Origin: Alphaproteobacteria bacterium | Lineage (GTDB): Bacteria; Pseudomonadota; Alphaproteobacteria; Bin95 | DNA length: 64,000 nt | Direction: 5' to 3' | NCBI GenBank assembly: GCA_964291285.2 | Contig: OZ219785.1 | Span: 160,001 to 224,000, forward strand | In this document: piece after piece, positions 24,651-46,942 of the stretch | How positions within the stretch are numbered: position 1 is the first letter of the stretch | How the letters are laid out: every line of letters begins with the position of its first letter | The notes under the pieces: generated by a model | What the model saw: the letters and a program-made list of their open reading frames with translations, nothing else | Databases searched by the model: none | What the model was told of the DNA's origin: nothing | Position numbers and translations under genes: made by a program

Positions 24651-24667
24651 GAGGAGGTCCTGGCGAC

Positions 24668-26173: not shown

Positions 26174-26304
26174 ACGGAGCGTGATCGCGCGGCAGGGCGG
26201 CAATCGTCCGGCAGCAGTGCCGGCGACGGCTCGGGCATGGCCGCTCCCGCCCGGCAAAGGTGCAGCCAGCCAGCCGGAAGACCGAAGGACCTGGCAAGAG
26301 GCAG

Positions 26305-27458
26305 TCAGGGAAAGGCTGTATCCATGACCCGCGACATCACGGTACCGACGCGCTCCGCAGCGGCCTCGATGTCGCGGTCCGCCAGATGGGCATCGCGCAG
26401 CGTCATCCGCACATTGGAGTGGCCAAGCAGGCGGGAGACGACCGGCACCGGAACGCCGTTCATGACCGCGTGGCTGGCGACCCCGTGTCGAAGATCGTGG
26501 AGGCGGACGTCCCCGATTCCGGCCTCCCGGCGAACCCGATACCAAAGTCCAAGTTCAGCATTGCGCGGCCTGGCGGGATCGGACGGCGAAGGAAACACGA
26601 AGGGGCTGTGGCTGCGGGGCTGGCGTTCGAGAATACGGCGGGCCTGGCTGTTGATGGGAACCTTTCTCGGACCCGTCTTGCTGTCGCCCAGGGCCAGCAT
26701 GTCGTCCTGTATCTCGGTCCAGCGCAGATTGACGATCTCACCCCTGCGGCAACCGGTGAGCAGAAGCAGCCGGATGATGTCGGCCTGTTGCTTGTCGCTC
26801 TCGCGGGTCTGCCTGTCGAGAGCCTCGTGCAGGCGGGCAATTTCCCCCCGCGACAGGAACCGGGTGAGCGCCGGGCGGCGGTTCCGTTTGAGGCCCTTGG
26901 TGGGATTGCTCTTTGCGTGACCGCAGGCTACGGCGAAATTCATGATCTGCCGCAGCATCTCAAGCGTGCGATTGGCCCCGCCCGGAGCGGTTCGGCTGTA
27001 CCGCTCGAACCAGCGCCTTACCTCTGCCGAGGTTATGCGGTCCAGAGGTTTCGTTCCGAACGCCGGAAGCAGCCGGGTGTTGAGACGGTAGGAGGCGGAA
27101 CGCCGGGTTGACGGCTTGTAGCAGTCGAAATGGGTTTCCTTCCAGGGTCCAGCGACGAAGTCCCGGAGAAGAGGAACTACGGGCGCCGGTGCCGCGGTTT
27201 CCTCCGGCTCCAGCGTCGCCCGGCGGGATTGCATTCCCGGCGGGCCTCGTCGACGGTTTTCGTGGAGACCGGGCCGAGCGACATGCGCTTCGAACGTCTG
27301 CCGGAGTCCTGCAGCAGAACCCAGCTTTGCCCGCCGGAAGGCCGGACCCGGACCCCGAGGCCGGGCACGCGGCTGTCCCAGACGGTATATTCCCGCTCGC
27401 GGGGACGGAGACGGACGATAGCGGCGTCGGTGAGATTCATGCGTTCCCTGGCGGCCAT
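26305..27458 (-). pseudogene. Tyrosine recombinase IntB, copy 1 (inactivated)
   Basis: Split over ORFs 27177-27458 and 26305-27234 by a frameshift; catalytic TLRYAH reads TLRDAH. Confidence 0.9.
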
Positions 27459-27461
27459 GGG

Positions 27462-27650
27462 TCAGCTTCCTCCCAGCACGGCGCCGACCGTCTCGGCGGC
27501 GTCCCGGATCATGGCGTCAGCGGCATGCGTGTATTTCAGCGTCGTTTCCGGCTTTCGATGGCCGAGCAGCCTGCCGATAGCGAGCACTGTCTCACCCTGC
27601 CGGAGCGCCAGGCTCGCATGCGTGTGACGCAGGTCATGGAGGTGGACGTC
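27462..27650 (-). pseudogene. C-terminal remnant of tyrosine recombinase IntA, copy 1
   Basis: HDLR..HASLALRQGETVLAIGRLLGHRKPETTLKY, homologous to the IntA C-termini at 40715 and 45512. Confidence 0.85.
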
Positions 27651-28068
27651 CTTGATGTCGGCTCTTCACCTCCGCATTCGATACCAGAGCGACAGTTCCG
27701 GACTGCGCGGTCGAAACGGATCCCGTGGTGAGGAATGGCCATCACCGATTGCGAAATCCCGATAGAGATGGCATCTTGACGCTCCGCAGGACGCTGCCAT
27801 GCCAATACCACTAGGTGCATAACACGTACACATGCTCCGTTTCTATCCACCCTCACGGCCATGCTGCTCCTCCCTGTCATGGAGTAGAGAGACTGGTATC
27901 CAGCCGCTTCAGGACTCACGACCCATTTGCAAGGCCCATCCTACCCTTAGCCAAGTCTCTAGCTATCTTTAGGAGCCAACCCAACAAGTCCCCCACACTG
28001 CCGCGCAAACCTCACTGACCTGACATCCCATGCGTTCTTGCTGGCCCTTGCTTCTGGTTTTTTTTCTA

Positions 28069-28394
28069 GGCCGTGGACTCATAAGCGCGTAGCCAGAGCC
28101 TGACAGTAGCGATCTTGATCATGGCGAGGAAGTTGGCCGCGAGCTTTTCGTATCGGGTGGCGATGCGGCGGAACTGCTTGAGTTTGTTGAAGGCGCGTTC
28201 GATCCGGTTTCGCAATTTATACAAGGGTTTGGAGAAAGCGTGCCTGGTCTTCGCGCCTTCGCGGTCGGGGATGATCGGGACGGCATCGTGTTGCTCGATC
28301 AGGTCACGGATCCATTTGGCGTCATAGGCCTTGTCGGCGATGAGGAAACTGTCGGGCGGCAGGGTCGCCAGCATGGCACCGGCGGCCGTGGTGT
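28069..28394 (-). mobile_element. 3' half of a split IS5-family (IS427-like) element
   Basis: TTAAGAMLATL...ADKAYDA...YKLRNRIERAFNKLKQFRRIATRYEK; end GGCCGTGGACTCATAAG preceded by TA. Confidence 0.9.
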
Positions 28395-28775
28395 AACACG
28401 AAGCAACCAATTTTGACGATTGTTTCATGTTTTGGGAAGCGCCGTCCTTCTCTCGTGTACGGCAACGGATACAGGGGCTTGGAGCACATGTCAAGGGGGT
28501 TGCCGGAAAGCCATACGAAGCAATCGTGGATGTGGCGGGAGCCCGTTGGTTGAATCCGGGGAACTGAAACTGCATTGCAGAATCCGTGGATACGCGCGTG
28601 GATCGCTGCCGGAACATGCTGGTCCGTAGAGATATCCGGGATAGGCATGGCGATCCGCCGAATCATGGCAAATGACGATGCCTGTTGTCTACCAGGGGTA
28701 TTCTGTCTGGAAATACGGAATGATTGTTAGGCAATTCGGGGGCGCCCGGGGCGCCAGACGGGAAGCGCCCGCGCC

Positions 28776-29383
28776 TCACCGGCTCCATGGCGGCGGTCCC
28801 TCGGCGCTCCAGTGCGGCGCGGGGTCGGTCGGCCATTTCTCCCAGGGCGGACAGAGGTATGCGGCGGTGACGTCCTGCGTGTCGGGCACGGGACAGTCGG
28901 GGCCGTCGGTGAGGAACGGGACCTGGCATGTGAAGGAACTGCTCGTCTTGCGCGCCTCGTTGATGCACCAGATGACGGCGCCGCCATACTTGTTCCAGAC
29001 ATGGGCGCGCCAGGGCCACACGCGGCTGAACAGCTCGTCCTGCATACGGGTCGGGGAGACGTATGCGCCGGTGACGAGGACGGCGATGGCAAGCGTGACG
29101 GCCGCCGCCCATGTGAGGTTGATCCTGATGCGGGTCCGGGAGCGTTCGCGGCGGCGGGCGGTTTCCTGGAGGAGGTATGCCCGGTCCACGCTCAAGGGCT
29201 GCCGGCGGGCCGGCGGCGCTTGCCCGGACCCGGCTGCCGGCCGGTTCGCGGGCGTCGGCTTCACCGGCGGCGGTGCGGCGGCCGGGGCCGGAGGGGATTC
29301 GGGAGCCGGGGCGGGGGATCGTTCCGGCGGGCCAGATCGGCCCTGAGGCGGTCGAGGGCGGTTTCGGGCGGTCTGTCGGTCAC
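28776..29383 (-). CDS. Hypothetical bitopic membrane protein (Pro-rich linker, TM helix, Cys/Trp-rich C-terminus); 5' end uncertain, possibly frameshifted
   Basis: TM WAAAVTLAIAVLVTGAYV; WRAHVWNKYG...WC...C; the plausible start (GTG, MTDRPPETALDRLR) is in another frame. Confidence 0.5.
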
Positions 29384-29447
29384 GGGCTGTCCCCCTGCGG
29401 CGGCGCGGCCGCGACCATACAGGCGATGGCGGGAGAGGACGAAGCTC

Positions 29448-29777
29448 ATGACGAGGGACAGGGAGGACCGGCGGCGCCAGCGCGCGGTCACGTTGACCGA
29501 CAGCGAGTGGCGCCGGCTGAAGGCGCGGGCGGACGAAGCGGGCATGCCGGTGTCGCGCTTCATCGTCCACCGGCTTGCGGAGGAGGACCCGGGTCCGCCG
29601 CCGGACCGGGGGCCGGGCGGGCTGCCGGCGGTGGTCTGGGGGCGGGTGGCGCGCGAGGTGCTGCTGCTCGGCCGGCTGGAGGAGGAGAGGCTGGCGGCCG
29701 CGCGCCTCTCGGAGGAGCGCGGCGCGCTCGCCGCCGAAGTGGAGACATGGCTCGCCCGGCAGGAGGAACTGGCGTGA
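29448..29777 (+). CDS. Ribbon-helix-helix (MobC/NikA-like) protein 1
   Basis: QRAVTLTDSEWRRLKARADEAGMPVSRFIV. Confidence 0.75.
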   Translation: MTRDREDRRRQRAVTLTDSEWRRLKARADEAGMPVSRFIVHRLAEEDPGPPPDRGPGGLPAVVWGRVAREVLLLGRLEEERLAAARLSEERGALAAEVETWLARQEELA

Positions 29778-29802
29778 GCGCGCCATACCGGGGGAGGTTG
29801 TC

Positions 29803-30123
29803 ATGAAGCAGGCGAAGTCGCGCTGCCTCTATCCGACGCCGGCGCAGTGGTCGCGTATCCAGGCGCGGGCGAAGGCGGCGGGCATGAAGGTCTCGCCGTT
29901 CCTGGTGGCGTGCGCGCTGAAGCGCGAGGCCGGGGGGCGGGCGGGCGAGCCTCTGGTGCTGACGGCGGAGGAACAGCGGGAGCTGTTCGACCGGGTGGCG
30001 CGGCTCGACCTTTGCAGCCGGACCATGCTGGCGCCGCTGCCGGGCATGGACATGGCGGCGTTCGAGGCGGTTGCGTTGCTCTGCCGGCTGTTCGCGCCCG
30101 AAGACCCGGGAGAGGCGCCGTGA
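29803..30123 (+). CDS. Ribbon-helix-helix protein 2
   Basis: RBS GGAGG; LYPTPAQWSRIQARAKAAGMKVSPFLVACAL...EEQRELFDRVAR. Confidence 0.72.
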   Translation: MKQAKSRCLYPTPAQWSRIQARAKAAGMKVSPFLVACALKREAGGRAGEPLVLTAEEQRELFDRVARLDLCSRTMLAPLPGMDMAAFEAVALLCRLFAPEDPGEAP

Positions 30124-30566
30124 GGCGCCCGCGCTCCGGGGTGAAGAAGATCGTGCGGTCCTTTTCCTGCACGGACCTGCAGCGCGACGAGATCGCCACG
30201 CGCGCGGCCGCGGCCGGCATGAACCTCTCGCCCTACGTGATCGAGTGCGGCCTGACGGTCGAACTCGACGCTGCCGAAGACGGGGCCGGCCCGTTGCCGT
30301 CGCTTGCCCTCGGCCGGGAGGAACAGCGCCGGCTGCACGACCGCGTCGCCGGGATCGCGGAACGCTGGCTGGGTCCGTCCGCGCCCGATCCGGCGGGCAT
30401 GGCGGACCTGCCGGCGGTGCTCGGCGTGCTGCTCGAACGGCTCATGACCGACATGGTCGAGATGGGGCATGAAGAGCGGATGCGCCGCCTGCTGCTGGAT
30501 GCCTTCGGCGAGGCCCGGGGCTCGGAGCTAGCCCGCCGGTATGCGGACAAGGCGCGCCGCCGCTGA
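30120..30566 (+). CDS. Ribbon-helix-helix protein 3
   Basis: GTGA overlap; SFSCTDLQRDEIATRAAAAGMNLSPYVIECGL...EEQRRLHDRVA. Confidence 0.72.
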   Translation: MRRPRSGVKKIVRSFSCTDLQRDEIATRAAAAGMNLSPYVIECGLTVELDAAEDGAGPLPSLALGREEQRRLHDRVAGIAERWLGPSAPDPAGMADLPAVLGVLLERLMTDMVEMGHEERMRRLLLDAFGEARGSELARRYADKARRR

Positions 30567-30711
30567 GCCTCGCACGGACATGCGAAAGGAAGGCGGCGGA
30601 CGGGAAACGGGACGGCGCCCGGCGCGGATTTCCCCGCAATTAAGACAGGCGCGGGACCGGGTACAAGAATAAACGCCCCGGACCGGAGTCGGGGCGACGT
30701 GCTGAACGTAC

Positions 30712-30746
30712 AAAGGAAAAGCCCCGGAACCCGCAGGCCCCGGGGC
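30712..30746 (-). terminator. Terminator downstream of ssb
   Basis: GCCCCGG...CCGGGGC hairpin followed by TTTTCCTTT on the minus strand; second hairpin at about 30674-30696. Confidence 0.65.
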
Positions 30747-30766
30747 GTAGTGGCGATGACGATGCC

Positions 30767-31186
30767 TCAGGCGGCGAGGTCCATCTCGTATGCTTCCGGG
30801 GGCGGCGCCGGCGGCCGGTTGTCGTTGGCCGCCCCGTCCGGCCTGGGGTCGAGGAAGTTGATGGAGCCGCGCGGGCCGACCAGGATCTCGGTGGTATGGC
30901 GGTCGTTGCCGTCGCGGTCCTTCCACTTCCGGGTGCGCAGCTTGCCGGTGACGTGCGCCTGGCGGCCCTTGGCGGCGTGCTTGCGCAGCATGGCCACCAG
31001 GCCCTCCTGGAAGACGGTGACCCGGTGCCACTCGGTCTGCTGCCTGTATTCGCCGGACTGGCGATCGCGGTAGCCTTCGTTGGTGGCGATGCTGAAATTG
31101 GCGACTTCGCCGCCGCCGGGGAGGCTGCGGAACTCGGGGTCCGCGCCCAGATTGCCGATCAGGTCGACGCGATTGAGGCCGTTCAT
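30767..31186 (-). CDS. ssb: Single-stranded DNA-binding protein (mobile-element type)
   Basis: LNRVDLIGNLGADPE, TEWHRV, GKLRTRKW; lacks the DDIPF tail. Confidence 0.93.
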   Translation of the reverse strand: MNGLNRVDLIGNLGADPEFRSLPGGGEVANFSIATNEGYRDRQSGEYRQQTEWHRVTVFQEGLVAMLRKHAAKGRQAHVTGKLRTRKWKDRDGNDRHTTEILVGPRGSINFLDPRPDGAANDNRPPAPPPEAYEMDLAA

Positions 31187-31403
31187 GATGATTTCTCCTT
31201 GCGAGAGGTTGTTTGCGAGTCGTTGCAACTCACCCCGAAAAGCCCTTTCCCGACCTTGCGGCGTCGATGCCAGCGCAGGCCGGGACAGGGTAGGCGGGGA
31301 TCGGGATGCCGGGCGAAGGACGCTGCGGAACTCACCCGGCGGGCGGGGCGAAGGGGGCGCGGACGGAGCGATGCCGCCCGCACCCGGGTCCCCGCCATTG
31401 CCG

Positions 31404-31718
31404 TCAGCGGGGGAACCGGCTCCGCTCCAGCATATGGCCCCAGATTGCGGAACTGCCCCAATATTGCACCCCCGAGTCGGCGGTCTTCTCGCCCTTGCAG
31501 ATGAGGATCTCGTTGCGCGCGGGGCGCAGCTCGCGGACGGTCTCCAGCGACAGGGTCAGCGGACGGCCCTTGCCGCCCGGCAGCCGGCGGATGTCACCGT
31601 CGATGCCGGTGCGGTACCGCTCGACCACATAGTGGTCGTCCTGCAGGCCGCGTCCGAACACGTGGACCAGAAAGCTGTTCGCACCGGGGCGGAAGGCGGA
31701 CGCATTGGTGGCGGGCAT
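31404..31718 (-). CDS. Hypothetical protein, 104 aa
   Basis: RBS AGGAG and ATG at 31718; preceded by a conserved upstream element. Confidence 0.6.
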   Translation of the reverse strand: MPATNASAFRPGANSFLVHVFGRGLQDDHYVVERYRTGIDGDIRRLPGGKGRPLTLSLETVRELRPARNEILICKGEKTADSGVQYWGSSAIWGHMLERSRFPR

Positions 31719-31851
31719 GTCGATAATCTCCTGTTGGAGGAAGGGGAGCGGGAGCCGGCCGCCCGGCCACCCGCAGGGATCGCATCGAAAACCCTTTCCC
31801 CACCTTCTTCCGGCGTCGATACCGCCAGGGCCGGGAGAGGGGAAACGGACG

Positions 31852-33156
31852 TCAGCGGCCGGCAAAGACGGCCGGGCCGGCGTCGGTCACGATCTCGACG
31901 TCGTCGAGCGTGAGCTTGGCGAAGGCCAGCGCGGCGGCGACCTCCATCGGAGTCTCCCAGGTGCCGTGGTCTGCGCCGTCGGCGATCCCGATCACGGTGT
32001 ATTGCGTCGGCAGGTCGGGCATGCCGCGATACGCGTAGCTGCGCTGCCGGTCGCGGCAGGGGCCGCATTCCCGCATGAGGGGTTCGGGCTCGCGGACGCC
32101 GCAGCGGGGACAGAGGCCGGCAGACAGGCGCTCGCGGGTCACGGCATGGTAGCGGCGGCGGTCGGTGGCGAGGCGCGCCTCGCGGCATTCCGTGCATGAG
32201 TCGAACCCGGGGTCGGGAGGCCGCTTCGTGCAATGGATGCAAACGCCCCGGGCGCGGGCCTCGGCGATCCTGCGATGCCATCTCGCGCGCTCGGCGGTGC
32301 GGCGCTCGTCCCGGCAGGGCCGGCACATTGTCGAGCCCTCGGCGGGAGAAGCCTTGCCGCAGCGGATGCAGAGCCCCCGGGAGGCCCGGGCGAGCACCCT
32401 GCGGTTGTACCCGTCCAGCGAGACGGCAAGACAGGCGTCGCAGGCCAGGCGCCCGGGCGCGGCGGGGTGGCGGCCGCAATCGAGGCACAATCCGACGGCG
32501 CGGCGGGCGTCCCGGCGGCGTCTGGCGGCCTGCTTGTCCCGTTCGGCGGGAAGCGGCCGGCAGTCCGGGCAGCGGCGGCTGCCGGGAACCGGCGGGGCCT
32601 CGCCGCACTCGATGCAGAGCGAGCGGTCGGCCTGCCGGCGGCGGCGGTCGATCCGGGCGCGGTATATCCGCCGGCGCGCGGCGAGGCAGTCGTCGCAGCA
32701 CGCATTGCCTTCGGCGGGCGCCCCGTTCCCGCACTGCACGCAGAGGCCGGCCTGGCGCCGTTCATCCTTGCGCTCCTGCAGGCGCCGGCGGCCGAGCGCG
32801 AGATGTTTTTCGTTGCAGGCCTCGCAGAGCCGCCGGCGGGGCTTTTCGGGCGTGGCGCCGCATTCCTGACAGAGGCCGCGGTTGCTCCGAAGCAGGCGGC
32901 GTTTGCGGGCGGCCTTGCGGTCGCTGGCGCGGCGGCGCTCCTGGCATTCCGGGCAGTATTTCGCCCCGTCGGGCGGGGAAACCTTGCCACAGTTCAAACA
33001 GAGGCCGCGCGCCGCAAGCCGGTCCCGGGCGCGCGAGGCGTTGGACCGCCGGGCGGGCGCGGCCCCGGTGGCGTTGCCGGAGCTGGCCCTGCAGCAATGG
33101 AAGCCCGCTGCTTCGGCGGGCGGATGGATATGAGCGGAAGCCGGCATGCCGGACAT
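31852..33156 (-). CDS. Protein with 8 tandem CxxC...CxxC (zinc-finger-like) repeats joined by Arg-rich helices
   Basis: GLCLNC/CPEC, GLCQEC/CEAC, GLCVQC/CDDC, SLCIEC/CPDC, GLCLDC/CDAC, GLCIRC/CRPC, GVCIHC/CTEC, GLCPRC/CGPC; RBS AGGAG before ATG 33156. Confidence 0.8.
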   Translation of the reverse strand: MSGMPASAHIHPPAEAAGFHCCRASSGNATGAAPARRSNASRARDRLAARGLCLNCGKVSPPDGAKYCPECQERRRASDRKAARKRRLLRSNRGLCQECGATPEKPRRRLCEACNEKHLALGRRRLQERKDERRQAGLCVQCGNGAPAEGNACCDDCLAARRRIYRARIDRRRRQADRSLCIECGEAPPVPGSRRCPDCRPLPAERDKQAARRRRDARRAVGLCLDCGRHPAAPGRLACDACLAVSLDGYNRRVLARASRGLCIRCGKASPAEGSTMCRPCRDERRTAERARWHRRIAEARARGVCIHCTKRPPDPGFDSCTECREARLATDRRRYHAVTRERLSAGLCPRCGVREPEPLMRECGPCRDRQRSYAYRGMPDLPTQYTVIGIADGADHGTWETPMEVAAALAFAKLTLDDVEIVTDAGPAVFAGR

Positions 33157-33723
33157 GGGCGACGTCTCCTGCTGGCGGGACGGGCGCGGGAGCCGGTCGC
33201 ACGGACGCCCCCCGCAGTAATCGCCCCGACAACCCTTTCCCGACCTTCCGGCCGGACAGGCCGGACGGCGGCGTTCGCCGGGAACGGCCGGCGGCGGCGC
33301 CCGGCCGGCCGCGCGGGAGAGGATTGCGACGGTCCGGACGGGGTGGGGACCGGGACGCCGGAAACCGGTCCGCCGCCGTTTCGGCTGCCCCGGCGGCCGG
33401 CGCTCCGGGCCGCCGCACCGGGAACCGCCGGCGGGCGTTCCCCCGGGGTCGCGCACGGAGGGGCGGAAACGGCGCCGGCTGAGAACCGCGTCGGCTTCGC
33501 CGATCCGGTTACCGGGTTACCGCTCGACCTGCCCTGTCCGCTCGCCAGGGCGGCGAAACGGGGCCGGGGCGGGCATGAACGCCTCGCCCTTCGACATCGG
33601 ATGCGGGCCGGCGGCCGGTCCCGACCGGCCGGGAAGAGCGCGTGCGCCGCCTGCTGCCGAACCGGTTTGAGGCGCGCGGCCAATTTGTGTTACCTTCCGC
33701 GGCCGGAACAGGGAGATTTAGCC

Positions 33724-34371
33724 ATGGCGAAACCCGGAATCACGCTTTCACCGCGCAAAGCGCACGGCGACCGTTGGGAATGGTGGAACCCCGATTTCGT
33801 CTTCGATTTTGTCGGTACCGATGGCAACGACGAGCTGTTCGGCGGCTACGGCGACGACACCATGCGCGGCGCCAAGGGCGACGACATGCTGTACGGCGGC
33901 CGGGGCGACGACCTTCTGAAGGGCGGCAATGGCGACGACACGCTGAAAGGCAGCTACGGCGACGACACGCTGAAAGGCGGCCGGGGCGACGACGACTTGG
34001 TGGACACGTCCGGCAACAATTTCATGTACGGCGGCCGGGGCGACGACTTCATGGTCGCCGGCGATGGCGACGATGTGCTCAAGGGCGGCCGGGACGACGA
34101 CATCCTGTACAGCGGCGGCGGTGCGGACCGTTTCGTTTTCGGCAGGAACAGCGGTTTCGACTCGGTCATGGACTATGAAGACGGCAAGGACAAGATCGTC
34201 TTCGAAGGCGGCATCCAGTTCTCGGACCTGATCTTCACTTACGAAGAGCAGCCCAGCGGCAGCCGCGCCGTAGCCAAAATCGAAGACGCTTCCGGTGAAT
34301 GGGCAGTTCATTTTGACAATTATGTAAAGGAAGAGGAATTGACCGAGTCCGATTTCGAGTTCCTCGGCTAA
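33724..34371 (+). CDS. RTX-type calcium-binding repeat protein
   Basis: Tandem GGxGDDxLx nonapeptides; RBS GGGAG and ATG at 33724. Confidence 0.9.
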   Translation: MAKPGITLSPRKAHGDRWEWWNPDFVFDFVGTDGNDELFGGYGDDTMRGAKGDDMLYGGRGDDLLKGGNGDDTLKGSYGDDTLKGGRGDDDLVDTSGNNFMYGGRGDDFMVAGDGDDVLKGGRDDDILYSGGGADRFVFGRNSGFDSVMDYEDGKDKIVFEGGIQFSDLIFTYEEQPSGSRAVAKIEDASGEWAVHFDNYVKEEELTESDFEFLG

Positions 34372-34419
34372 CCCGGAACCCAGAACGCTTTTTCCAACCA
34401 TCTTCAAGGGAAACAAACC

Positions 34420-35262
34420 ATGGCACGACCCGGAAAAACCATTACCGGAACCCCCGGTCATGATTATGCAGGACCTTGGCACTATCCGCAGGATGGCGGA
34501 CCGCGCTACCGCTCAAAGGACTTGGAGGGAACGAACCGCGACGACACGATCCGAGGCTTGGAGGGGCATGATCGAATCGTCGGCAAGCGTGGCGACGACA
34601 CGCTGTACGGCGGCGGCGGCGTGGATCTGATCCTGGGCAACGCTGGCCACGACACGTTGTACGGCGGCAACGGCGACGACCACCTGTTAGGCGATTCCGG
34701 CAACGACACGCTGAAAGGCGGCAACGGCGACGACGACATGTGGGGCGGCACGGGCCGGGACTCTCTTTACGGCGACGCCGGCCACGACGACATGTGGGGC
34801 AACGAGGGCCGGGACTCTCTTTACGGCGGCGACGGCGACGATGACATGGACGGCGGCGGCGACGACGACCTTCTGAAGGGCGGCGACGGAAGAGACACGC
34901 TCTGGGGCGGCAAGGGCAACGACACGCTCGACGGCGGCGACGGCGACGACTTCCTGTGGGGCAACAACGGCAACGATACCTTCATCTTCAGCGGGAACAG
35001 CGGAAAGGACGTCATCCGTGACTACGATGCGGATTCGGACACAATCCAGATCAAGGGAGTCTCCGGGATCGAAGATTCTGGCGACCTCTATCGCTTTTCT
35101 ACCAAGCTAGGCAACGACGATGCTGTAATAATCTACAAAGCAACAGAGGTTAATGAAGACAATGATGGCAAAGACGCCAGGGACAACGCAACGTGGGAAA
35201 TCAAGCTTCTTGATACGCAGTTGTCCGACGTTGATCTGTCCGACTTCGATATCATCGCCTGA
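34420..35262 (+). CDS. RTX-type calcium-binding repeat protein (paralogue)
   Basis: Tandem GGxGxDxLx repeats; C-terminal SDF as in the preceding gene. Confidence 0.9.
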   Translation: MARPGKTITGTPGHDYAGPWHYPQDGGPRYRSKDLEGTNRDDTIRGLEGHDRIVGKRGDDTLYGGGGVDLILGNAGHDTLYGGNGDDHLLGDSGNDTLKGGNGDDDMWGGTGRDSLYGDAGHDDMWGNEGRDSLYGGDGDDDMDGGGDDDLLKGGDGRDTLWGGKGNDTLDGGDGDDFLWGNNGNDTFIFSGNSGKDVIRDYDADSDTIQIKGVSGIEDSGDLYRFSTKLGNDDAVIIYKATEVNEDNDGKDARDNATWEIKLLDTQLSDVDLSDFDIIA

Positions 35263-35456
35263 CGGTTAAAACTTGCCGCCCCGGCGTTCGGGGCGCGTAT
35301 CTGCTTGCATAAGCGGCGCGGGGCCGTCGCCGGGCCGCGGCGAACGCTCGCAAGCTCGCTACACGCCGACCCCGGCGAGACCTTATCGCGCCTGAATGGA
35401 TACGGCAGAATCGAGCGCCCAACGCGCTACGCGCGGCGCTTGCCGAAACTGCCGGT

Positions 35457-35533
35457 GGTTCCCCCGCCCACGCGGGGATAGCCCCCGCCGTGCATCTGCG
35501 AATCATGACATTCGGTCTTGGTGTCTCCCGCAC
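35457..35533 (+). CRISPR. Solitary type I-E-like CRISPR repeat, possibly a mini-array with a degenerate second repeat
   Basis: GGTTCCCCCGCCCACGCGGGGATAGCCCC (35457-35485) with CCCCGC/GCGGGG stem; about 34 nt later GGTGTCTCCCGCAC; no cas genes in the window. Confidence 0.55.
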
Positions 35534-35884
35534 GAACGGCCGGCCTGCATCGCCCGGGTCACGCCGCAACGCATTCCTTCTCCGTCTCCGGGGCCTCGTC
35601 GCCATATGCCGGCCTCCGGAACGGTCCCGCGCGCTGTCTCTGTCCATGGAATCTGCTCTCATATGGTACCAGCAGGGCATGTTTTATACCACCGGCCACA
35701 GATAAGAACCGATTAGCCTCTCTCGGCGGAGATTACCTCTTGCAGTAGGAGGCCTCGGCTCAGGGGGCGAGCTGCGGAGGGAGGCTCTGCTATAGGTTCC
35801 AATCAACGACCGTTGGTATTACCTACATACCCATAGAATCACGATGGACTGTAATACCAGCGGCGCTGATTGCTGACTCATGAC

Positions 35885-37580
35885 CCTAAATCCGGCAGTT
35901 GAGTATGGCTTGGCCTTGCCGAATCCCTTGTAGTCTTCGGGTATGAGCGGCTTTTCAGGGGCCGAAGAGGCTCACCCTGTGGGTGATTATCCTGGCGCTG
36001 TGCGGGATGTCGCCCGAGCGTTCGTGAAGGTGGACACCTTCGGCGGCGCGGTTCATGTGGAATGGGACCCTGATGCGGCGGTGACGCCGCTGGGGCATCT
36101 GGCGTTTTTCGCGGAATAGCTGAAGGTGAGCGGTCGCTTTGACGCTTTGGTTGCGGACTGCCCGCTGCGGTACACGAGCCCGAACGCGCCGTCGAAGCGG
36201 GATGTCCTGGGGACGGTTCTTCTGTCGGTTCTGGCGGGGCAGTCTCGCTATGCGCACATCACGTCGCTGCGCGGCGACGGGGTGAACCCTGCGCTGCTGG
36301 GTATGGACAAGGTTGCGAGCGAGGATTCGGTGCGGCGCGGTCTGGAGCGGATCGGTGCGGATGTCGGCACATCGTGGCTTCAGGGCCATCTGGACGAGGT
36401 GGTCCGTCCGCTGCTGAGGGAGCCGTGGGTTCTGGACTGCGACACGACGATCAAGGCGCTTTACGGTCGTCAGGAGGGAGCGGTTGTGAGCTACAACCCG
36501 AAGAAGCCGGGCCGCCCCTCGCATGCCTGCCATGCGTTCCTGATGGCGGGCACGCGGCTTGTTCCGGATGTCGAGGTGGCGCCGGGCAACCATCACCATT
36601 CGAGGCGCGCGGCGCCGTCCTTGTGGGCGTTGCTCGACCGTCTTGGGCGGGATCGCTGGCCGCGTCTGGTGCGGGGCGACAAGGACTGGGGCAGCGAGGC
36701 CAACATGGCTTCGTGCGAGGCTGCGGGTCCGGACTATCTGTTCAAGCTGCGCCTGACGAAGGGGGCGCGCCTGCTTGCCGAGCGGCTGATGGCGCGGGAC
36801 GGCCGGGAGGATGCGGGCCAGGGCTGGTCGGGGATCGGGGCCGATCTGCGTCTGCAGGGCTGGAGCCGGACGCGCCGGGTTGTGGTGCTGCGCCGGCGGC
36901 TTCCTGCGACGCTGGCGCTGACGCGTGGCGACAAGGCCCGGGGCGAGCTGTTCCGGACCGGGGCGCAGCCCGGCACCGGGGTGTGGGAGTTCGCGGTGCT
37001 GGCGACCTCGCTGGACCTGGAGATACGCTCGCTGGCCCAGCTCTACCGCGACCGGGCGGACGCGGAGAACGGCTTCGACGAGTTGAAGAACCAGTGGGGC
37101 TGGGGCGGCTTCACCACGCGCGACCTGACGCGCTGCCGGCACATGGCCCGGCTGGTCGCGCTCATCTACAACTGGTGGAGCCTGTTCGTGCGCCTCGCCG
37201 ACCCCGACCATCACCGCGAGGCGATCACCAGCCGGCCGCTGCTCCTGCACGGGGTTGCCCGCCAGACCCACCACGCCGGCCAGACCCGGCTGACGGTGAC
37301 CTCCCATCACGGGCGTCGCAAGACGGTGATGGCGGCGCTGCGCCGGATCGCCGGCTTCTTCCGGTCGCTGACGCAAACTGCGGAGCAGTTGAGCGCCGGG
37401 GATCGCTGGCGCCGCATCCTCGCCGAGGCGCTCAGGAAATACCTCCATAGCCGCGAACCGGGGCGTCAACCCTGGCTGCCGCCACCCAGGGCCGCGACCA
37501 CGTGCTGAAATCCACGCCCAAATCCGACCGTTCACACTACCCCGAGACAGCGATCAAGCCCGTCAACTGCCGGATTTAGG
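35885..37580 (+). mobile_element. IS1380-like insertion sequence, 1696 bp
   Basis: Perfect 18-bp TIR CCTAAATCCGGCAGTTGA; no clear target duplication. Confidence 0.88.
35943..37508 (+). pseudogene. IS1380-like transposase with an in-frame TAG at 36117-36119
   Basis: VDTFGGAVHVEWDPDAAVTPLG...FFAE*LK; LDCDTTIK, RGDKDWG, YRDRADAENGFDELKNQWG. Confidence 0.85.
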
Positions 37581-37651
37581 ATCAACTGAAAAACCGCAAC
37601 CGGCCGAAAAATGTCAGCGAATAGGCGCGCTCTGTAACCGTCGCTAACACT

Positions 37652-38427
37652 GGGAGGATGCAGGCCAGGGCTGGTCGGGGATCGGGGCCGATCTGCGTCT
37701 GCAGGGCTGGAGCCGGACGCGCCGGGTTGTGGTGCTGCGCCGGCGGCTTCGCGGGCCTCTGGCGCTGACGCGCCGCGATGACGGCCAGGGCGATCTGTTC
37801 TGGGTCGATGGGCAGCCTGACGCCAAGCTGTGGGAGTTTGCGATCCTCGCCACCTCGCTGGACCTGGAGGTGCGCTCGCTGGCCCAGCTCTACCGCGACC
37901 GGGCGGACGCGGAGAACGGCTTCGACGAGTTGAAGAACCAGTGGGGCTGGGGCGGCTTCACCACGCGCGACCTGACGCGCTGCCGGCACATGGCCCGGCT
38001 GGTCGCGCTCATCTACAACTGGTGGAGCCTGTTCGTGCGCCTCGCCGACCCCGACCATCACCGCGAGGCGATCACCAGCCGGCCGCTGCTCCTGCACGGG
38101 GTTGCCCGCCAGACCCACCACGCCGGCCAGACCCGGCTGACGGTGACCTCCCATCACGGGCGTCGCAAGACGGTGATGGCGGCGCTGCGCCGGATCGCCG
38201 GCTTCTTCCGGTCGCTGACGCAAACTGCGGAGCAGTTGAGCACCGGGGACCGCTGGCGCCGGATCCTCGCCGAGGCGCTCAGGAAATACCTCCATGGCCG
38301 CGAACCGGGGCGTCAACCCTGGCTGCCGCCACCCAGGACCGCGCCCACAGGCTGAAATCCACGCCCAAATCCCACCGTTCACACTACCCCGAGACAGCGA
38401 TCAAGCCCGTCAAATGCCGGATTTAGG
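37652..38427 (+). mobile_element. 5'-truncated second IS1380-like copy
   Basis: Near-identical to about 36805-37580, including the right end (TCAAATGCCGGATTTAGG). Confidence 0.9.
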
Positions 38428-39210
38428 ATAAATCGCGGTCGTCCCCTGCTTCCGGTCCGTGGACTCTTTCGCGATTCCGGGGGAATCGACCAAGAACACC
38501 TTGTCCTTATCCTTCCACCGGTTGCACCATTGCTTTGCGCGCCACTGCAATTCGCAATTGCAGTTGACCATGAAGAATGTTCGAGGCGATACGTACCGCC
38601 AACGAACCGCACAGGTTCTGCTACCGAGCCCTTCCTCAAGCCGTCGTTGCCAGTGGCATACCTCCTCGGCATGGCCTCCTTTACGTCGGCTGTTGTGATG
38701 GTAGAGGATTACGGGCCTCCCTCCTTCTGATAACGCCGCTATTTCGCATTCGGGAATTCCCTTTCCGTGCCTTCTGCGACCGGGTCGAAACGACTCCTGC
38801 TCAATGAGGCCGTTGTCGGGATCGGCAAAGACCAAATCGCAATCTTGCAAATCCCTCCTGGTTTTACGAAACCACTTCTTCCTCCATGTCCCTTGTTCGT
38901 GCTGCTTGCATCCGTGGAAATCCAATTTCCCATCCGAAAAGACGGCATCCGCGAGAAGATCGGAGCTTTCAACTGCCCGGACGCTGCGATTTCCAGATTT
39001 TACGAGCCTGTAGAGCCTGTCGAATGTCTCCCTATCGCAATCTCGCCATTTCTTCGCGTTGCATAGATAACCTGTGTGTTTTCCGTCTTTCTTCTCTTCT
39101 TCGTCGGGGAAAAGATACCAGGCCACGCCCAGCTTCGATCCGTAGGAAAGCGCGCGAAGCAGACTGTATTTTGCGTAGTCGCCGATGTCTCCCGTATATC
39201 TGTCCTGCAT
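38410..39210 (-). CDS. Conserved hypothetical protein, possibly a Rossmann/methyltransferase-like fold; C-terminus runs into the IS end
   Basis: MQDRYTGDIGDYAKYSLLR, VFADPDNGL, VILYHH. Confidence 0.7.
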   Translation of the reverse strand: MQDRYTGDIGDYAKYSLLRALSYGSKLGVAWYLFPDEEEKKDGKHTGYLCNAKKWRDCDRETFDRLYRLVKSGNRSVRAVESSDLLADAVFSDGKLDFHGCKQHEQGTWRKKWFRKTRRDLQDCDLVFADPDNGLIEQESFRPGRRRHGKGIPECEIAALSEGGRPVILYHHNSRRKGGHAEEVCHWQRRLEEGLGSRTCAVRWRYVSPRTFFMVNCNCELQWRAKQWCNRWKDKDKVFLVDSPGIAKESTDRKQGTTAIYPKSGI

Positions 39211-39524
39211 TCGCGGCTTCCACCCCTCACTCCAGTCCCATCAGGCTGCGGGCGAAGTCGCGGGGGGCGAGGCGCGAGGCGTATTCTACACCGTGTTCGA
39301 GACGCTGAAGTCAAGTCTGGATACACCCGCCGCTGCGATGGCCCGAAACCTCTAACCCGGCGCGCGGCGTCATGCAATGCAGAAATTTGCGCTGCGGTGC
39401 GGCTGTGGTGCTTTTTCGGCAGCAGGAGATGGGGGTTCGCGTCCGGTCGGTGTTGTGCTGTGGCGTGTTGAGGCGAGGGCGGCGGTTGATTTTCGAGCGC
39501 GAGCGGAACCGCACAGCGGCATTG

Positions 39525-40715
39525 TCAGGAATCGGTCGCGGTTGCCCGGCCGTCACCGGCGCTGTCCGGTTCGCCCGTCATGGTCCGCGCCATCGCCTTG
39601 CCCACCCGCTCGGCCGCAGCTTCGATGTCGCGGTCGGCGAGATGGGCGTAGCGCAGCGTCATGCGCACATCGGAATGGCCGAGCAGGCGGGAGACGACCG
39701 GGACCGGCACGCCGTTCATGACGGCATGGCTGGCCATGGTATGGCGCAGGTCATGAAGGCGCACATCCCCGATGCCGGCTTCGCGTCTGACGCGGTACCA
39801 GAGCGGCAGGTCGGGGCTGCGCGGGCGGGCGGGGTCGCGCGGCGAGGGAAACACGAACGCGCTGCCCGTGCGCGGCTGCCGGTCGAGGATGCGCCGCGCC
39901 CGGCTGCCGAGCGGGACCGTCCTCGGCCCCGTCTTGCTGTCCGAGAGGGCCAGCATGTCCTCGCGAACTTCCGACCATCGCAGGCCCGTGATCTCGCCCC
40001 TGCGGCAACCGGTGAACAGCAGCAGCCGGACGATGTCGGCCTGCTGCCTGTCGCGGCTTCGGGTCTGCGCGTCCAGAACACTGTGCAGGCGTGCGAGTTC
40101 CTCGCGGGACAGGAACCGCATGAGCGCCGGGCGGCGGTTCCTTCTTGTGCCCTTGGCCGGATTGACTTCGATGTGGCCGCAGGCGGCGGCGAAGGTCATG
40201 ATCTGCTGCAGGATGTCGAGGGCGCGGTTGGCGCCGCCGGGCGCGGTCCGGCTGTAGCGGTCGAACCACTGCCGGACATGGGCCGGGGAAATGCGGTCGA
40301 GCGGCTTCGAGCCGAATGCCGGAAGCAATTGTCGCCGGAGTATCCCGGACGCGGTTTGCTGGCCCGACGGCTTGCAGCGGTTGAAATGGGCCTCCTTCCA
40401 CGGGCCGGCGACGAAATCCCGGAACAGCGGGACCGCGCCGGGCGGTTTGGCAGTCTCCTCCGGCTGCGGGGCCGCCTGGCGTTCAAGAGCCTCCCGGCGG
40501 GCTTCGGCGGCGCTCTTCACGCCGACCGGGCCGAGCGAGACGCGCCTGGTGCGCCCGCCGCTGTCGAGCAGCAGCACCCAGCTGCGCCCGCCGGCGGGCC
40601 GCACCCGGACGCCGAGGCCGGCGATGCGCGTGTCCCGGACCGTATATTCCCGCTCGCGGGGGCGGAGACGGGCGACGGCGGCGTCGGTCAGCTTCATCCG
40701 TTCCCGGCCCGCCAT
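39525..40715 (-). CDS. Tyrosine recombinase IntB, copy 2 (intact)
   Basis: Arm-binding N-terminus (LTDAAV...GLGVRVRP-x-G); TGCRRGEI, SKTG, HDLRH, LLGH, TLRY. Confidence 0.93.
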   Translation of the reverse strand: MAGRERMKLTDAAVARLRPREREYTVRDTRIAGLGVRVRPAGGRSWVLLLDSGGRTRRVSLGPVGVKSAAEARREALERQAAPQPEETAKPPGAVPLFRDFVAGPWKEAHFNRCKPSGQQTASGILRRQLLPAFGSKPLDRISPAHVRQWFDRYSRTAPGGANRALDILQQIMTFAAACGHIEVNPAKGTRRNRRPALMRFLSREELARLHSVLDAQTRSRDRQQADIVRLLLFTGCRRGEITGLRWSEVREDMLALSDSKTGPRTVPLGSRARRILDRQPRTGSAFVFPSPRDPARPRSPDLPLWYRVRREAGIGDVRLHDLRHTMASHAVMNGVPVPVVSRLLGHSDVRMTLRYAHLADRDIEAAAERVGKAMARTMTGEPDSAGDGRATATDS

Positions 40716-41839
40716 CAGTCTGCCTCCAGCACGGCGCCGACCGTCTCGACAGCGTCCTGCACCATGGCGTCGGCGACATGGGTATATTTCAGCGTGGTTT
40801 CCGGCCTGCGGTGGCCCAGCAACCGGCCGATGGCGAGCACCGTCACGCCCTGCCGGAGGGCAAGGCTCGCATGCGTATGGCGCAAATCGTGAAGGCGGGC
40901 GTCCTCCAGGTCTGCCTCGGCGCGGACCCTGCGCCAGAAGTGGTCCAGCCAGCTTCCGCTCCGGGGCCGGTCGCTATCCGGGGCCGGGAACACATGGCGG
41001 CCTTCCCGCTCAAGGCCGTCGAGAACGGCCCGGGCCGGCTCCGACAGCCAGACTGTCCTCGGCCCCGTCTTGGAGTCGCGAAGAAACAGGCGGCCTTCCC
41101 GGTAGTCGGACCATTGCAGGGTGAGGATCTCGCCCTTGCGGCAGCCGGTCAGCAGCAGCAGGCGGATGACGGCGACATGCTGCGGCCAGCGGGCCTCATG
41201 CGCCTTGAGCCGCGCGGACAGGCGGCGGATTTCCTCGTCCGGGAGGAACCGCTCGCGGCCCTTGCGGCGGTAGCGGCGGATGCCCCGGCAGGGGTTGGAC
41301 CCTTCCGGGCGCAGGCCCATGGCCTCCGCCTCCCTCATGATGACGGACAGCACCGGCATCGACCGGTCCGCCGCCACCGGCGTCGCGCGCAGGCGGGCGA
41401 ACCAGTTCCTTACCTCCTGCCGGTCGATGGCGGCAACCGGACGCCCGGCGAAATGCGGCAGAAGCCGGTTGCGCAGATAGCTGCGGTTGACAGCGAGCGT
41501 TCCGGCCTTCCAGAGCCTTGCATGGCGCTCGAACACGGTTTCGGCGACGGCTTCGAAGAGCGTCTCGTCCGGCGTGAGCGGCGCCTCCCCGCCGCGCCTG
41601 ATCGCGGCAAGCATGTCCGCAGCCGCAGACCGCGCGTCCGTGACGCTCATCGACCCGGCGTCGCCGACGATCTTCCAGATACGCACGCCGCGATGCTGGC
41701 AGTGGATGAAGAACTGCTTGCGGCCCGAGGGCGACACACGGACGCCGAACCCCCTGAGCCTGCCGTCGCGGACCTCGCGGACGGACCTGCGGGGCTTGAG
41801 CGCCTTCACGCGCGCCTCGGTAAGGGTAGTCTTCGCCAT
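40715..41839 (-). CDS. Tyrosine recombinase IntA, copy 2 (intact)
   Basis: LTEARVKAL...GFGVRVSPSG; TGCRKGEI, SKTG, HDLRH, LLGH, TTLKY; TGATG overlap with intB. Confidence 0.93.
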   Translation of the reverse strand: MAKTTLTEARVKALKPRRSVREVRDGRLRGFGVRVSPSGRKQFFIHCQHRGVRIWKIVGDAGSMSVTDARSAAADMLAAIRRGGEAPLTPDETLFEAVAETVFERHARLWKAGTLAVNRSYLRNRLLPHFAGRPVAAIDRQEVRNWFARLRATPVAADRSMPVLSVIMREAEAMGLRPEGSNPCRGIRRYRRKGRERFLPDEEIRRLSARLKAHEARWPQHVAVIRLLLLTGCRKGEILTLQWSDYREGRLFLRDSKTGPRTVWLSEPARAVLDGLEREGRHVFPAPDSDRPRSGSWLDHFWRRVRAEADLEDARLHDLRHTHASLALRQGVTVLAIGRLLGHRRPETTLKYTHVADAMVQDAVETVGAVLEAD

Positions 41840-41955
41840 TGCGTTTCTCCCGGCTCCGGTTGCAGCCGGGGAACGGGCCCTTGCGACCCGCTTGCCCGAC
41901 CGCTGCATTTCGGGAGAAAAAACGACGCTATGTCAGATAGTTAGCACCGGCAGGT

Positions 41956-42479
41956 GCGGCCGTGGTGTCGTGCGCCTGGCCAGGGCTGAGGTCATAGCGG
42001 ACCGGCAGGCCGCTCACGTCCGACACGGCGTGGATCTTCGTGGTCAGTCCGCCACGGGAACGGCCCATGCAACGATCCGGACCCCCTTTTTTGATCCCGC
42101 CGCATGCTGGTGAACCCGGACGCTCGAACTGTCGATCATCTGCACATTGCCGTCGTGAGCCTCCACCACCGCATCCATCAACTGATCCCAGATGCCCTTC
42201 TTGCGCCAGCGGTTGAACCGGTTGTAGCAGGTCGTACAAGGCCCGTAGTGCTCCGGCAGGTCTCGCCACGGCGCCCCCGCGCGAAGCACCCACAGAATGC
42301 CGTTCAACACCCGCCGGTCGTCAACCCGCGGCACCCCACGGGTCTTGTTCGGCAGCAACGGCTTGATAACCCGCCATTCGAAGTCCGTCAGATCGTACCG
42401 GCCCATGTCCTCGCTCCCTGAAGTTGGGAGCTTGAATCACAGCTTCGCTGAAGAAGAAACCCCTTATGGGTACACGACC
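41956..42479 (-). mobile_element. 5' half of the split IS5-family element (orfA 42044-42406 and start of orfB)
   Basis: MGRYDLTDFEW...WRDLPEHYG; GRSRGGLTTKIHA...LSPGQAHDTTAA; end matches the 28069 end at 14/17 nt; TA flank at 42480-42481. Confidence 0.9.
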
Positions 42480-42514
42480 TAATCTCCTGCGCTACGATAA
42501 AGGAACCGTCCACA

Positions 42515-43294
42515 ATGCCTAACGTGACGACAATTCCAGAAAATATAGAATATGTTCTTCTACACGGCTACGGTGCCAATGCGAGTTCCTGGGATTTAGT
42601 TGCCGATAGTATGAATGCAATTCACTCCACTCATGCTATTGAATTGGTTGGATTTGGTCGGAACGTTCCCCCGAAACACTTCGACTACTCTCTGGAGTCT
42701 CAAGCACAGCATCTGGCGCAATTATTCAGAAACAGGAGTAATTCCTACAGGCTAGTAGCTCACTCCCTCGGTGCAGCTATTGCTGTTATTGCGTTGCTGG
42801 ACTTCAAACTAGATCCGAAGGAGTTAATTTTGATTAGTCCGCTGTTAGTTCCCCAAGAGGCCCCGTTTTTTATTAGCATCCATTCTGTGCCCTTGCTGTC
42901 GAATATTGTCACGAACGCACTCCCACCATCTATCTTGGTCGACTCCGTACTAAAAAGAATCTATTTTGATCCCAAAAAGATAAATGCTGATATTCGGTCT
43001 GCCTATATCGGTGATTTCTCAAACACCTATCATCGACGCGCCCTGCGCGAGACAGCACGCACTCTCTATAGATTTGATGCTGAACCATACGTTAGCCGCT
43101 TCAACAATATTGAGACTCCGGTAACGATTATTTGGTCTCGAGAAGACCCACTTCTCCCATTCCGAAATGCCGCTACATTGCAATCCAAAATGCCCAATTC
43201 AAGATTGTTCCCGATAGACAATTGTGGCCATGCTCCACACGAGGAATGTCCTGGCAAATTTGTTGAGGCATTCTTGTCCTCAAGGGAAAAGTAA
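42515..43294 (+). CDS. Alpha/beta-fold hydrolase (low GC)
   Basis: LLHGYG, AHSLG nucleophile elbow, EDP, CGHAPHEE. Confidence 0.9.
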   Translation: MPNVTTIPENIEYVLLHGYGANASSWDLVADSMNAIHSTHAIELVGFGRNVPPKHFDYSLESQAQHLAQLFRNRSNSYRLVAHSLGAAIAVIALLDFKLDPKELILISPLLVPQEAPFFISIHSVPLLSNIVTNALPPSILVDSVLKRIYFDPKKINADIRSAYIGDFSNTYHRRALRETARTLYRFDAEPYVSRFNNIETPVTIIWSREDPLLPFRNAATLQSKMPNSRLFPIDNCGHAPHEECPGKFVEAFLSSREK

Positions 43295-43298
43295 ATCA

Positions 43299-44144: not shown

Positions 44145-44339
44145 TCGCTTACCACGCAGTGCGTGGCCCGGAACGTTGAAGGGTGGCGATAGTTGTCAAC
44201 GAAATCGCGCTTGGCAAGTCGTTATGGCGCTGTGCGGCGCGAACCGGTGGAGAGCGCGGGATCGGAGGGGACGAGGGCGTAGCCGGGCGCGGCTGACGGG
44301 GGCCGGATCGGCCCTGTATGTCGCGCGGTCTGCCTGCTG

Positions 44340-46636: not shown

Positions 46637-46747
46637 AGAATTTCTCCCGGCTCCGGTTGCAGCCAGGGAACTGATATGCTTCCCTAGCTGCAAATTTTCG
46701 GGAGAAAAAACGACGCTATATCAGATAGTTAGCACCCAAGGTGCGCC

Positions 46748-46942
46748 GCCGCGGTGTTCGTCGAAGCCGGCGCTCGCCGGGTCCCTGTCGGCGCTGTAAC
46801 TCACGGGCGCGAAATCGGGAAAGAAACCGACCCCGAGCACGCGCCCCTTTTCCGTGCAGGCGGCAGGGGCCTCCGCCGCTGCGAACAGCGCCGCGAGGCC
46901 GAACGCACCCGCAAGAAGCCGCCTGCCGGATCGCGCCGTCAT
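46748..46942 (-). pseudogene. 5' fragment of a periplasmic substrate-binding protein gene cut by the island boundary
   Basis: Signal peptide then LGVGFFPDFAPVSYS...FDEHRG, running into the integrase-module end. Confidence 0.65.

Follow-up and report, generated by a model that had tools for sequence, protein, structure and literature searches.

The window analysed here, a 64,000-nt stretch of an alphaproteobacterial genome to which all positions given without a contig name refer, contains a 13,561-bp segment (28395–41955), designated el-2, which interrupts an insertion sequence (IS) of the IS5 family and carries two adjacent tyrosine integrase genes, intA and intB, inside its right end. Contigs C1–C5 of the same organism's genome (G000) were searched for further copies. 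The insert is genuinely mobile, and related elements form a family present in multiple copies in this genome and in the genus. Quite probably, it is an integrative element of a multi-copy family that employs the paired P4-like integrases IntA and IntB for conservative site-specific integration at sites matching its core. The parts of the locus that define the insertion are the following:

28069–28394, minus strand: 3' part of the IS5-family IS, C-terminal portion of the transposase (DDE_Tnp_1, DDE_Tnp_1_2), TA flank at 28067–28068
28382–28394, plus strand: attL core, GCGGCCGTGGTGT, the last 10 bases of which are shared with the second insertion site
28395–41955: element body, el-2, 13,561 bp, with a second copy at C2:434351–447919
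28395–28460, plus strand: left end of the AACACGAAGCAACC type, found also in elements with an IntA of only 60% identity (C2:1218591, C4:596593)
39525–40715, minus strand: intB, tyrosine integrase with an arm-binding domain, 396 aa
40715–41839, minus strand: intA, tyrosine integrase with an arm-binding domain, 374 aa (373–374 aa in relatives)
41912–41958, plus strand: conserved right end, GGGAGAAAAAACGACGCTATGTCAGATAGTTAGCACC-GGCA-GGTGCG, with GCACC (41944–41948) and GGTGC (41953–41957) as inverted copies
41956–41968, plus strand: attR core, the second copy of GCGGCCGTGGTGT
41969–42479, minus strand: 5' part of the IS5-family IS, comprising the DUF4096 open reading frame (ORF) and the start of the DDE ORF, TA flank at 42480–42481

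The exact 13-mer GCGGCCGTGGTGT is found at two sites in the window, 28382–28394 and 41956–41968. As a bare motif it is unremarkable (with up to two mismatches, 8 matches were counted where 4.76 were expected, and this count was reached in 14 of 100 shuffles), and its significance stems from its position, as it closes the left IS piece and opens the right one. Separate searches of the genome with the left piece (13-mer at its end) and with the right piece (13-mer at its start) showed that the two queries overlap by exactly 13 bases in six full-length copies of the same IS (98.7–100% identical; C2:1206651–1207499, C3:381192–382032, C3:1160944–1161783, C3:1408066–1408912, C4:491783–492631 and C5:405528–406370). 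Thus, the intact IS contains a single 13-mer, located at the break point of the window copy. The first-pass annotation, made from the sequence of the window alone, had proposed that the two halves form one IS of ~837 bp and that an exact 13-bp direct repeat bounds the DNA between them, and both proposals are borne out by the alignment with the six intact copies. The reassembled IS (28069–28394 plus 41969–42479) is 837 bp long between its TA flanks, has imperfect inverted repeats at its termini and encodes IS4/IS5-type transposase domains (DUF4096, E-value 5e-31; DDE_Tnp_1, 2e-12; DDE_Tnp_1_2, 3e-10). The DDE type, the length of ~0.8 kb, the short inverted repeats and the TA flanks place it in the IS5 family, in a subgroup that we take to be IS427-like. 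The repeat itself had been interpreted as an att core; it is of the att type, but the functional core is shorter than 13 bp, given perfect repeats of 7–13 bp across the family, and the additional GCG in this IS agrees with the right end of the element merely by coincidence. The insertion at this locus is polymorphic: contigs from two other runs of the same organism (X23 and X24), which may include the source sample and are not fully independent, join position 28065 directly to 42479 and have neither the IS nor the element there. An X23 contig also covers the left junction (28365–28789) with zero mismatches. Runs X1–X21 contain just small shares of the sequence words and were left out as a source on habitat.

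The second copy of el-2 (C2:434351–447919) is 99.963% identical over 13,574 nt, and both of its flanks differ from those in the window. Its site lies 13 bp from the terminus of another IS, which is unrelated to the first and also occurs in multiple copies. Of this IS subtype, six uninterrupted copies read GATCGTGTCCCGA-GCCGTGGTGT-AAGAGCC (with ...CCCGA before GCCGTGGTGT), and in the occupied one the element is flanked by two copies of GCCGTGGTGT. Apart from this 10-mer, the two targets of el-2 have nothing in common. The termini of the element are formed by the same bases in both sites, which belong to two unrelated IS families, and at both sites the cores at the two junctions are identical, with a single core in the unoccupied site. 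The view of this region as a delimited, cargo-carrying element is thereby confirmed: the nearly identical copy ends at the same bases elsewhere. The same position in the IS5-family IS is occupied by two further family members, and that in the second IS by one. As anticipated in the first-pass annotation, the element does not target tRNA genes; its insertion sites are insertion sequences. Genome-wide, the occupied targets of three spacer types were all found inside multi-copy IS-like repeats.

Both IntA and IntB contain the Arm-DNA-bind_3, Phage_int_M and Phage_integrase domains (Phage_integrase, E-values 2e-19 and 9e-22; Arm-DNA-bind_3, 1.5e-10 and 5.4e-9, respectively), which agrees with the earlier description of two full-length arm-domain integrases at one end of the element. 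The two proteins are 41% identical to each other, both being full length, and their genes overlap by one base (the intA stop codon and the intB start codon). The positions of the catalytic Arg, Lys, His-x-x-Arg, His and Tyr, the residue set of tyrosine recombinases, are kept in both, as are the motifs TGCR(K/R)GE, DSKTGPRTV, LHDLRHT, LLGH and (K/R)Y(T/A)H. Among solved structures, the closest are catalytic domains of phage integrases (5c6k, E-value 7e-14; HP1 integrase, 1e-8). In loci from other genomes, intB follows intA in 50 of 52 cases, the exceptions being one locus without room and one with a truncated intA, and the gap between the two genes is 3–29 bp in 49 of these 52. The tree of 23 integrases groups the A-type proteins of the genus with the A proteins of Vibrio and Photobacterium plasmids (support 95/92), and the B-type proteins with the B proteins of the same plasmids (92/90). 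The tree placement of the pairs of Polymorphobacter and of a clade with ~44% IntA identity (see below) was unresolved. By these groupings, the A-type and B-type integrases are old, separate lineages.

The genome contains 114 tblastn matches to IntA. Fourteen intA genes are full length and at least 90% identical to that of el-2, three of them being broken by TAG, further clades are found at ~60% and ~44% identity, and every intA in the genome is followed by intB. At E-values of at most 1e-100, 13 of the 16 further species of the genus have IntA relatives, and none of 24 genomes outside it does. The element is not unique. Among 300 other genomes sampled across the class, nine have an IntA match at E-values of at most 1e-60, with adjacent pairs visible in three. 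The same right-end architecture was observed in loci of other genomes labelled as Defluviicoccus sp. or as alphaproteobacterial metagenome-assembled genomes. More distant pairs (33–42% identity) are located on plasmids of Polymorphobacter, Vibrio europaeus and Photobacterium damselae, and the annotation of the pairs in relatives and plasmids is just 'site-specific integrase'. Upstream of the Polymorphobacter and Photobacterium plasmid pairs, ACACC-C-N-ACGCA motifs resembling the ends of the ~44% clade were noticed (locus L060, 3660–3720; locus L061, 2730–2770). These motifs hint that the GGTGT core may be shared far beyond the genus. The ~44% clade itself has at least 11 nearly identical copies (e.g., C1:792230–794703 and C5:417037–419500), with right ends reading ...GGATGCGTCGGGTGT and ...CAAGGATGCGTCGGGTGT and with long open frames after the second integrase. 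Since its flanks recur, the true ends of this clade may lie farther out, and the recurrence suggests tandem or nested arrangements.

Collecting intA–intB pairs and aligning their flanks, as had been proposed in the first-pass annotation, revealed conserved ends and repeats. Eighteen of 22 right ends in the genome read ...GTCAGATAGTTAGCACC-N4-GGT/GCG-N5-7-GGTGT, with unrelated DNA beyond, and the other four are one-base variants or diverged. A loose 17-mer scan of this and other genomes gave 83 hits, of which 56 fit ACACC-N5-8-CGCACC-N3/4-GGTNCTAA; the remaining 27, many of them occurring by chance, do not fit the full pattern, and only the 56 were used. The first spacer in the fitting ends is 6 nt long in 38, 5 in 15, 7 in two and 8 in one. 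The canonical left ends (n = 14) read AAATCTCGAACG...TTAGGGCACTATCTGACAG, begin exactly after GGTGT in 12 cases and hold an inverted copy of the right-end motif. Eleven complete elements of 8.2–38.7 kb were delimited in the genome: nine have perfect repeats of 13, 13, 13, 10, 10, 10, 10, 7 and 7 bp, and in the other two the repeats match at 9 of 10 and 8 of 11 positions. All three elements examined in another species have repeats (12, 10 and 9 bp). The repeats of 12 of these 14 complete elements end in GGTGT, the other two having GGCGT on the left side and GGTCT on the right. The variable length of the repeats, together with the fixed GGTGT, excludes a DDE-type duplication. The strand-exchange region of tyrosine recombinases is 6–8 bp, and the shortest perfect run, NNGGTGT, is of that size. 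The spacer tracks the integrase phylogeny in two clades (GCCGT at four ends, GGCGC at four ends). The repeat search was run from 21 right ends (22 are listed) and gave clear left partners for six only. Several short repeat partners were rejected as chance matches or as the ends of other elements; an apparent partner of C5:400411 at 11.7 kb proved to be the end of a ~44%-clade element, the true partner being located at 10.1 kb.

At the left end, three tandem NikA-like ribbon-helix-helix genes are located 381–396 bp inside nine canonical left ends; in the el-2 type of left end (GGTGT/AACACGAAGCAACC) this trio is ~1,050 bp inside. For all three intA copies listed at 78–80% identity in another species (G015), a ribbon-helix-helix homologue was found 22–33 kb away, on the expected side and strand. 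The conserved third component of the family is thus not beside the integrases; it is this trio, at the opposite end. The trio could serve as a directionality or architectural factor at the left arm, or bind an oriT for mobilisation. The left end and first 5.3 kb of el-2 are 98% identical to those of a 33-kb element (C2:1185350–1218591), the integrases of which are only ~60% (protein) and 69% (DNA) identical to those of el-2. With the left 5.3 kb coming from one clade and the integrase module from another, el-2 is a natural hybrid of two family clades, yet it exists in two copies.

Based on these data, the following mechanism may be proposed. The hallmark of the family is an operonic intA–intB pair inside the right end and the NikA-like trio inside the left end. 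In the excised circle, the joined ends would read ...GCACC-N4-GGTGCG-spacer-GGTGT-AA..., and the circle would recombine with a chromosomal site of the same short sequence, at least NNGGTGT and in the present case GCCGTGGTGT, leaving one copy of the core at each junction. Strand exchange would take place within NNGGTGT. IntA and IntB may act jointly on the unlike halves of the asymmetric core, by analogy with XerC/XerD on dif, and the element-carried spacer beside GGTGT may pick the targets through identity in the strand-exchange region. Spacer-guided targeting is supported by the two unrelated targets with the 10-mer alone in common and by the spacer following the integrase tree in two clades. 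At the locus in the window, the IS5-family element had entered a low-GC segment before el-2 entered the IS. According to Bardaji et al. 2017 (PMC5385486), excision in GInt genomic islands yields att variants that shift the target choice, and similar variants arising at excision would explain spacer turnover in the present family.

Several observations weigh against this mechanism. Canonical members have the right-end motif ACTATCTGACA also as a subterminal inverted copy in their left end, but el-2 does not; given this absence despite two copies, el-2 may have moved in trans. A third clade, the right end of which is GCGCTC-NNN-GGTGT, has near-identical integrase modules with different NNN, which means that the spacer is not strictly inherited there, and two elements of this clade have just 7-bp perfect repeats, with a third pair imperfect (8/11). 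Moreover, the genome has 47 copies of GCCGTGGTGT, 38 of which do not form att junctions, and every occupied one lies within two IS families. With most copies unoccupied, either more than the 10-mer matters or selection purges other insertions. Unpaired left and right ends are numerous in the genome, a pattern such as replicon rearrangement through recombination between copies might leave. No PF03432 relaxase was found in the whole genome, a search that covered this relaxase family only, and no excisionase-type gene was found. Finally, no circle junction is present among 15 of the 17 joints listed in contigs of four runs, a result that is uninformative, since contigs drop rare forms.

The presence of two nearly identical el-2 copies and of 14 intA genes at least 90% identical would also suit replicative spread, and the variation of the spacer among near-identical modules of one clade points in the same direction. 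Such data might reflect a copy-out or strand-biased route like that of strand-biased circularizing integrative elements (SE) and Tn554, in which the donor stays, no empty site is formed and the spacer is a carried 'fingerprint'. According to PMC10214605, IntA and IntB of SE work in concert with two additional proteins, and an empty site does not arise. The junctions of SE and Tn554, however, lack matching repeats, whereas 12 of the 14 complete elements described here have perfect repeats of 7–13 bp. Furthermore, the one-base overlap leaves no tfp-like gene between intA and intB, no conserved gene follows intB (homology between copies stops at the intB stop codon), and extra copies also arise by cut-and-paste after replication or by re-integration. 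This route is rather improbable.

Joint action of IntA and IntB is a putative feature of the mechanism proposed above, and most genomic islands make do with a single P4-like integrase. Integration and excision might be the work of just one of the pair, the other being a regulator or a directionality factor, or resolving tandem arrays or multimers. A decayed or purely regulatory copy would be expected to lose catalytic residues, but all of the catalytic residues and the arm, core-binding and catalytic domains are kept in both proteins; the pair is retained in 50 of 52 loci with its genes overlapping in el-2, and the A and B lineages are distinct across Alpha- and Gammaproteobacteria. Such a division of roles is unlikely. 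Since the element is located inside an IS, carries another IS and resides in a genome full of IS copies, the segment might also not be self-moving at all, its position being due to IS-mediated composite transposition, to DDE target duplication or to recombination between IS copies. Duplications made by a DDE transposase are constant in length but not in sequence, whereas the repeats are 7–13 bp long and nearly always end in GGTGT; dozens of loci from other genomes have the conserved ends beside their integrase genes, and the two el-2 copies share their exact boundaries although the IS families that they entered are unrelated. We consider this explanation very improbable.

Integration by the IntA–IntB pair was compared with the tyrosine-recombinase element groups tabulated in PMC10214605, a 2023 paper on SE, namely ICE/IME, SE, GInt, RIT and Tn554-related elements. 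By gene set and junctions, the family fits none of the multi-recombinase groups, because it has two recombinase genes, both with arm domains, no tfp, srap, ginD or tnpC beside the pair, and matching repeats. The likeness to GInts consists of clustered tyrosine-recombinase genes at one island end, site-specific insertion and direct, partly imperfect repeats (PMC5385486). In GInts, four genes are needed (ginABCD, three integrase-like genes plus GinD), whereas here there are two of the P4 type with an arm domain, and no small conserved gene adjoins the pair in the el-2 family, the NikA-like trio being at the other end. SE resemble the family in that a single operon at one terminus encodes catalytic IntA and IntB, and in having terminal inverted repeats that are imperfect, short target cores and cargo of 6–58 kb (PMC10214605). 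The same source gives the SE order as intA-tfp-intB-srap, which is not the order found here, and describes 6 bp of attB going to attL and the carried 6 bp to attR without an empty site, while the repeats of the present family match. The SE hosts it names are Gammaproteobacteria only, whereas the family described here occurs in Alphaproteobacteria, with distant pairs on gammaproteobacterial plasmids.

Tn554 (tnpA, tnpB, tnpC) likewise has two tyrosine recombinases with one or more accessory proteins and a preferred short core. No TnpC-like gene follows the pair in el-2, and the next ORF (38410–39210) is not conserved between elements. Tn554 is not known to make matching repeats. RIT (recombinase in trio) elements use a fixed array of paralogous tyrosine recombinases as their mobility module. 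In PMC8138268, both TnpA of Tn554 and the three RIT recombinases (RitA, RitB and RitC) are assigned to the 'simple' class, unlike the two arm-binding proteins, each with Arm-DNA-bind_3, encoded by el-2. P4/P2-type islands have the same integrase domain set as the el-2 pair. By comparison, the mechanism proposed for the family most resembles classical site-specific integration in which the recombinase is split as in Xer. Identical attL and attR cores are the signature of classical integrases, and the Xer system is the model of an asymmetric core acted upon by two paralogous recombinases. A classical island has a single integrase and a single fixed target, often a tRNA gene, and is present once per genome, unlike the el-2 family, with its invariant pair, its many targets of differing spacer and its dozen or more copies in each genome. 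The full-text literature search, with subscription journals and supplements outside its reach, turned up no description of paired P4-like integrases serving as a mobility module. This accords with the first-pass annotation, which had recognised no named family, and the gene set differs from those of Tn554, RIT, GInt and SE.

To our knowledge, multi-recombinase elements such as Tn554, RIT, GInt and SE are poorly understood, and the division of labour between recombinases is settled in none of them. The el-2 family represents a minimal two-integrase version with unusually rich natural data, comprising dozens of copies per genome, intact IS as empty-site controls, spacer clades and a moving hybrid. 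If the spacer beside GGTGT sets the target, the family would link strict site-specific integrases with promiscuous tyrosine transposases and could serve for targeted insertion of large DNA. It may also be tentatively suggested, with more doubt than confidence, that the pairs of Alpha- and Gammaproteobacteria constitute an unnamed superfamily of heteromeric IntA+IntB elements, the target of which consists of the fixed GGTGT and a carried, exchangeable spacer of 2–5 nt. If so, it would be a naturally re-programmable site-specific integrase system, and the exchangeable spacer would explain both the transposon-like copy numbers and the nesting in insertion sequences. The elements of the family are a main source of repeats, and probably of rearrangements, in one group of wastewater- and sponge-associated Alphaproteobacteria, with Defluviicoccus among the relatives.

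Between the left end and the integrase pair, el-2 contains the NikA-like genes, cargo and a nested IS:

29445–29777, plus strand: NikA-like ribbon-helix-helix gene 1 of 3 (PF21983, E-value 3.2e-5, below the gathering score)
29800–30123, plus strand: NikA-like ribbon-helix-helix gene 2 of 3 (PF21983, E-value 1.9e-7, above the gathering score)
30150–30566, plus strand: NikA-like ribbon-helix-helix gene 3 of 3 (PF21983, E-value 4.2e-6)
30767–31228, minus strand: single-strand DNA-binding protein, cargo or accessory (PF00436, E-value 4.8e-28)
31852–33456, minus strand: long ORF with repeated Cys-x-x-Cys pairs, start uncertain, no match in Pfam, NCBIfam or PADLOC
33700–35262, plus strand: two small proteins with RTX calcium-binding repeats, cargo, ending at 34371 and 35262 (PF00353, E-values 7e-33 and 1.9e-48)
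35881–37584, plus strand: nested IS, inverted repeats of 22 nt, DDE_Tnp_1_4 transposase at 36126–37508, dozens of copies in the genome
37652–38427, plus strand: partial second copy of the nested IS (3' part)
38410–39210, minus strand: 266-aa ORF, cargo, no family match

The second ribbon-helix-helix gene (29800–30123) also matches MobA (NF041264, E-value 1.1e-6), far under the cut-off of that model. The Cys-rich ORF (31852–33456) is composed of about eight Cys-x-x-Cys ... Cys-x-x-Cys units with Arg-rich stretches between them; it lies in very GC-rich DNA and may or may not be a real gene. Besides this ORF, the 266-aa ORF and an ORF at 31404–31865 had no match in Pfam, NCBIfam and PADLOC. The two RTX genes contain DNA repeats with a period of 27 nt. 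The partial copy of the nested IS directly follows the complete one (35881–38427 in total) and closes with the same terminal repeat.

The interrupted IS with its nested element is located between two other integrase pairs of the window. The remnant pair (26305–27670) comprises an intB-like ORF of 309 aa, which has all three integrase domains (with no arm domain as called), and an intA cut to its last ~70 codons, with lower-GC DNA after it. The intact intB–intA pair at 44340–46693 encodes an IntA 81% identical to that of el-2 and has the conserved right end, with GGTGCG-CCGCCGC-GGTGT at 46740–46757; its left end was not found in the search. The only tRNA gene called by ARAGORN in 20000–50000, tRNA-Cys(ACA) of 83 nt at 45124–45206, falls inside the intB of this pair and is probably a false positive. 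Two further ORFs of the neighbourhood, 24605–26545 and 43551–44144, have no match in Pfam, NCBIfam or PADLOC. The latter belongs, together with an alpha/beta hydrolase gene (42515–43294), to the low-GC segment around the IS (27680–28066 and 42482–44300; 42–53% GC against ~68% for the genome). It is this segment that the IS entered, and the X23 and X24 contigs carry it unbroken.

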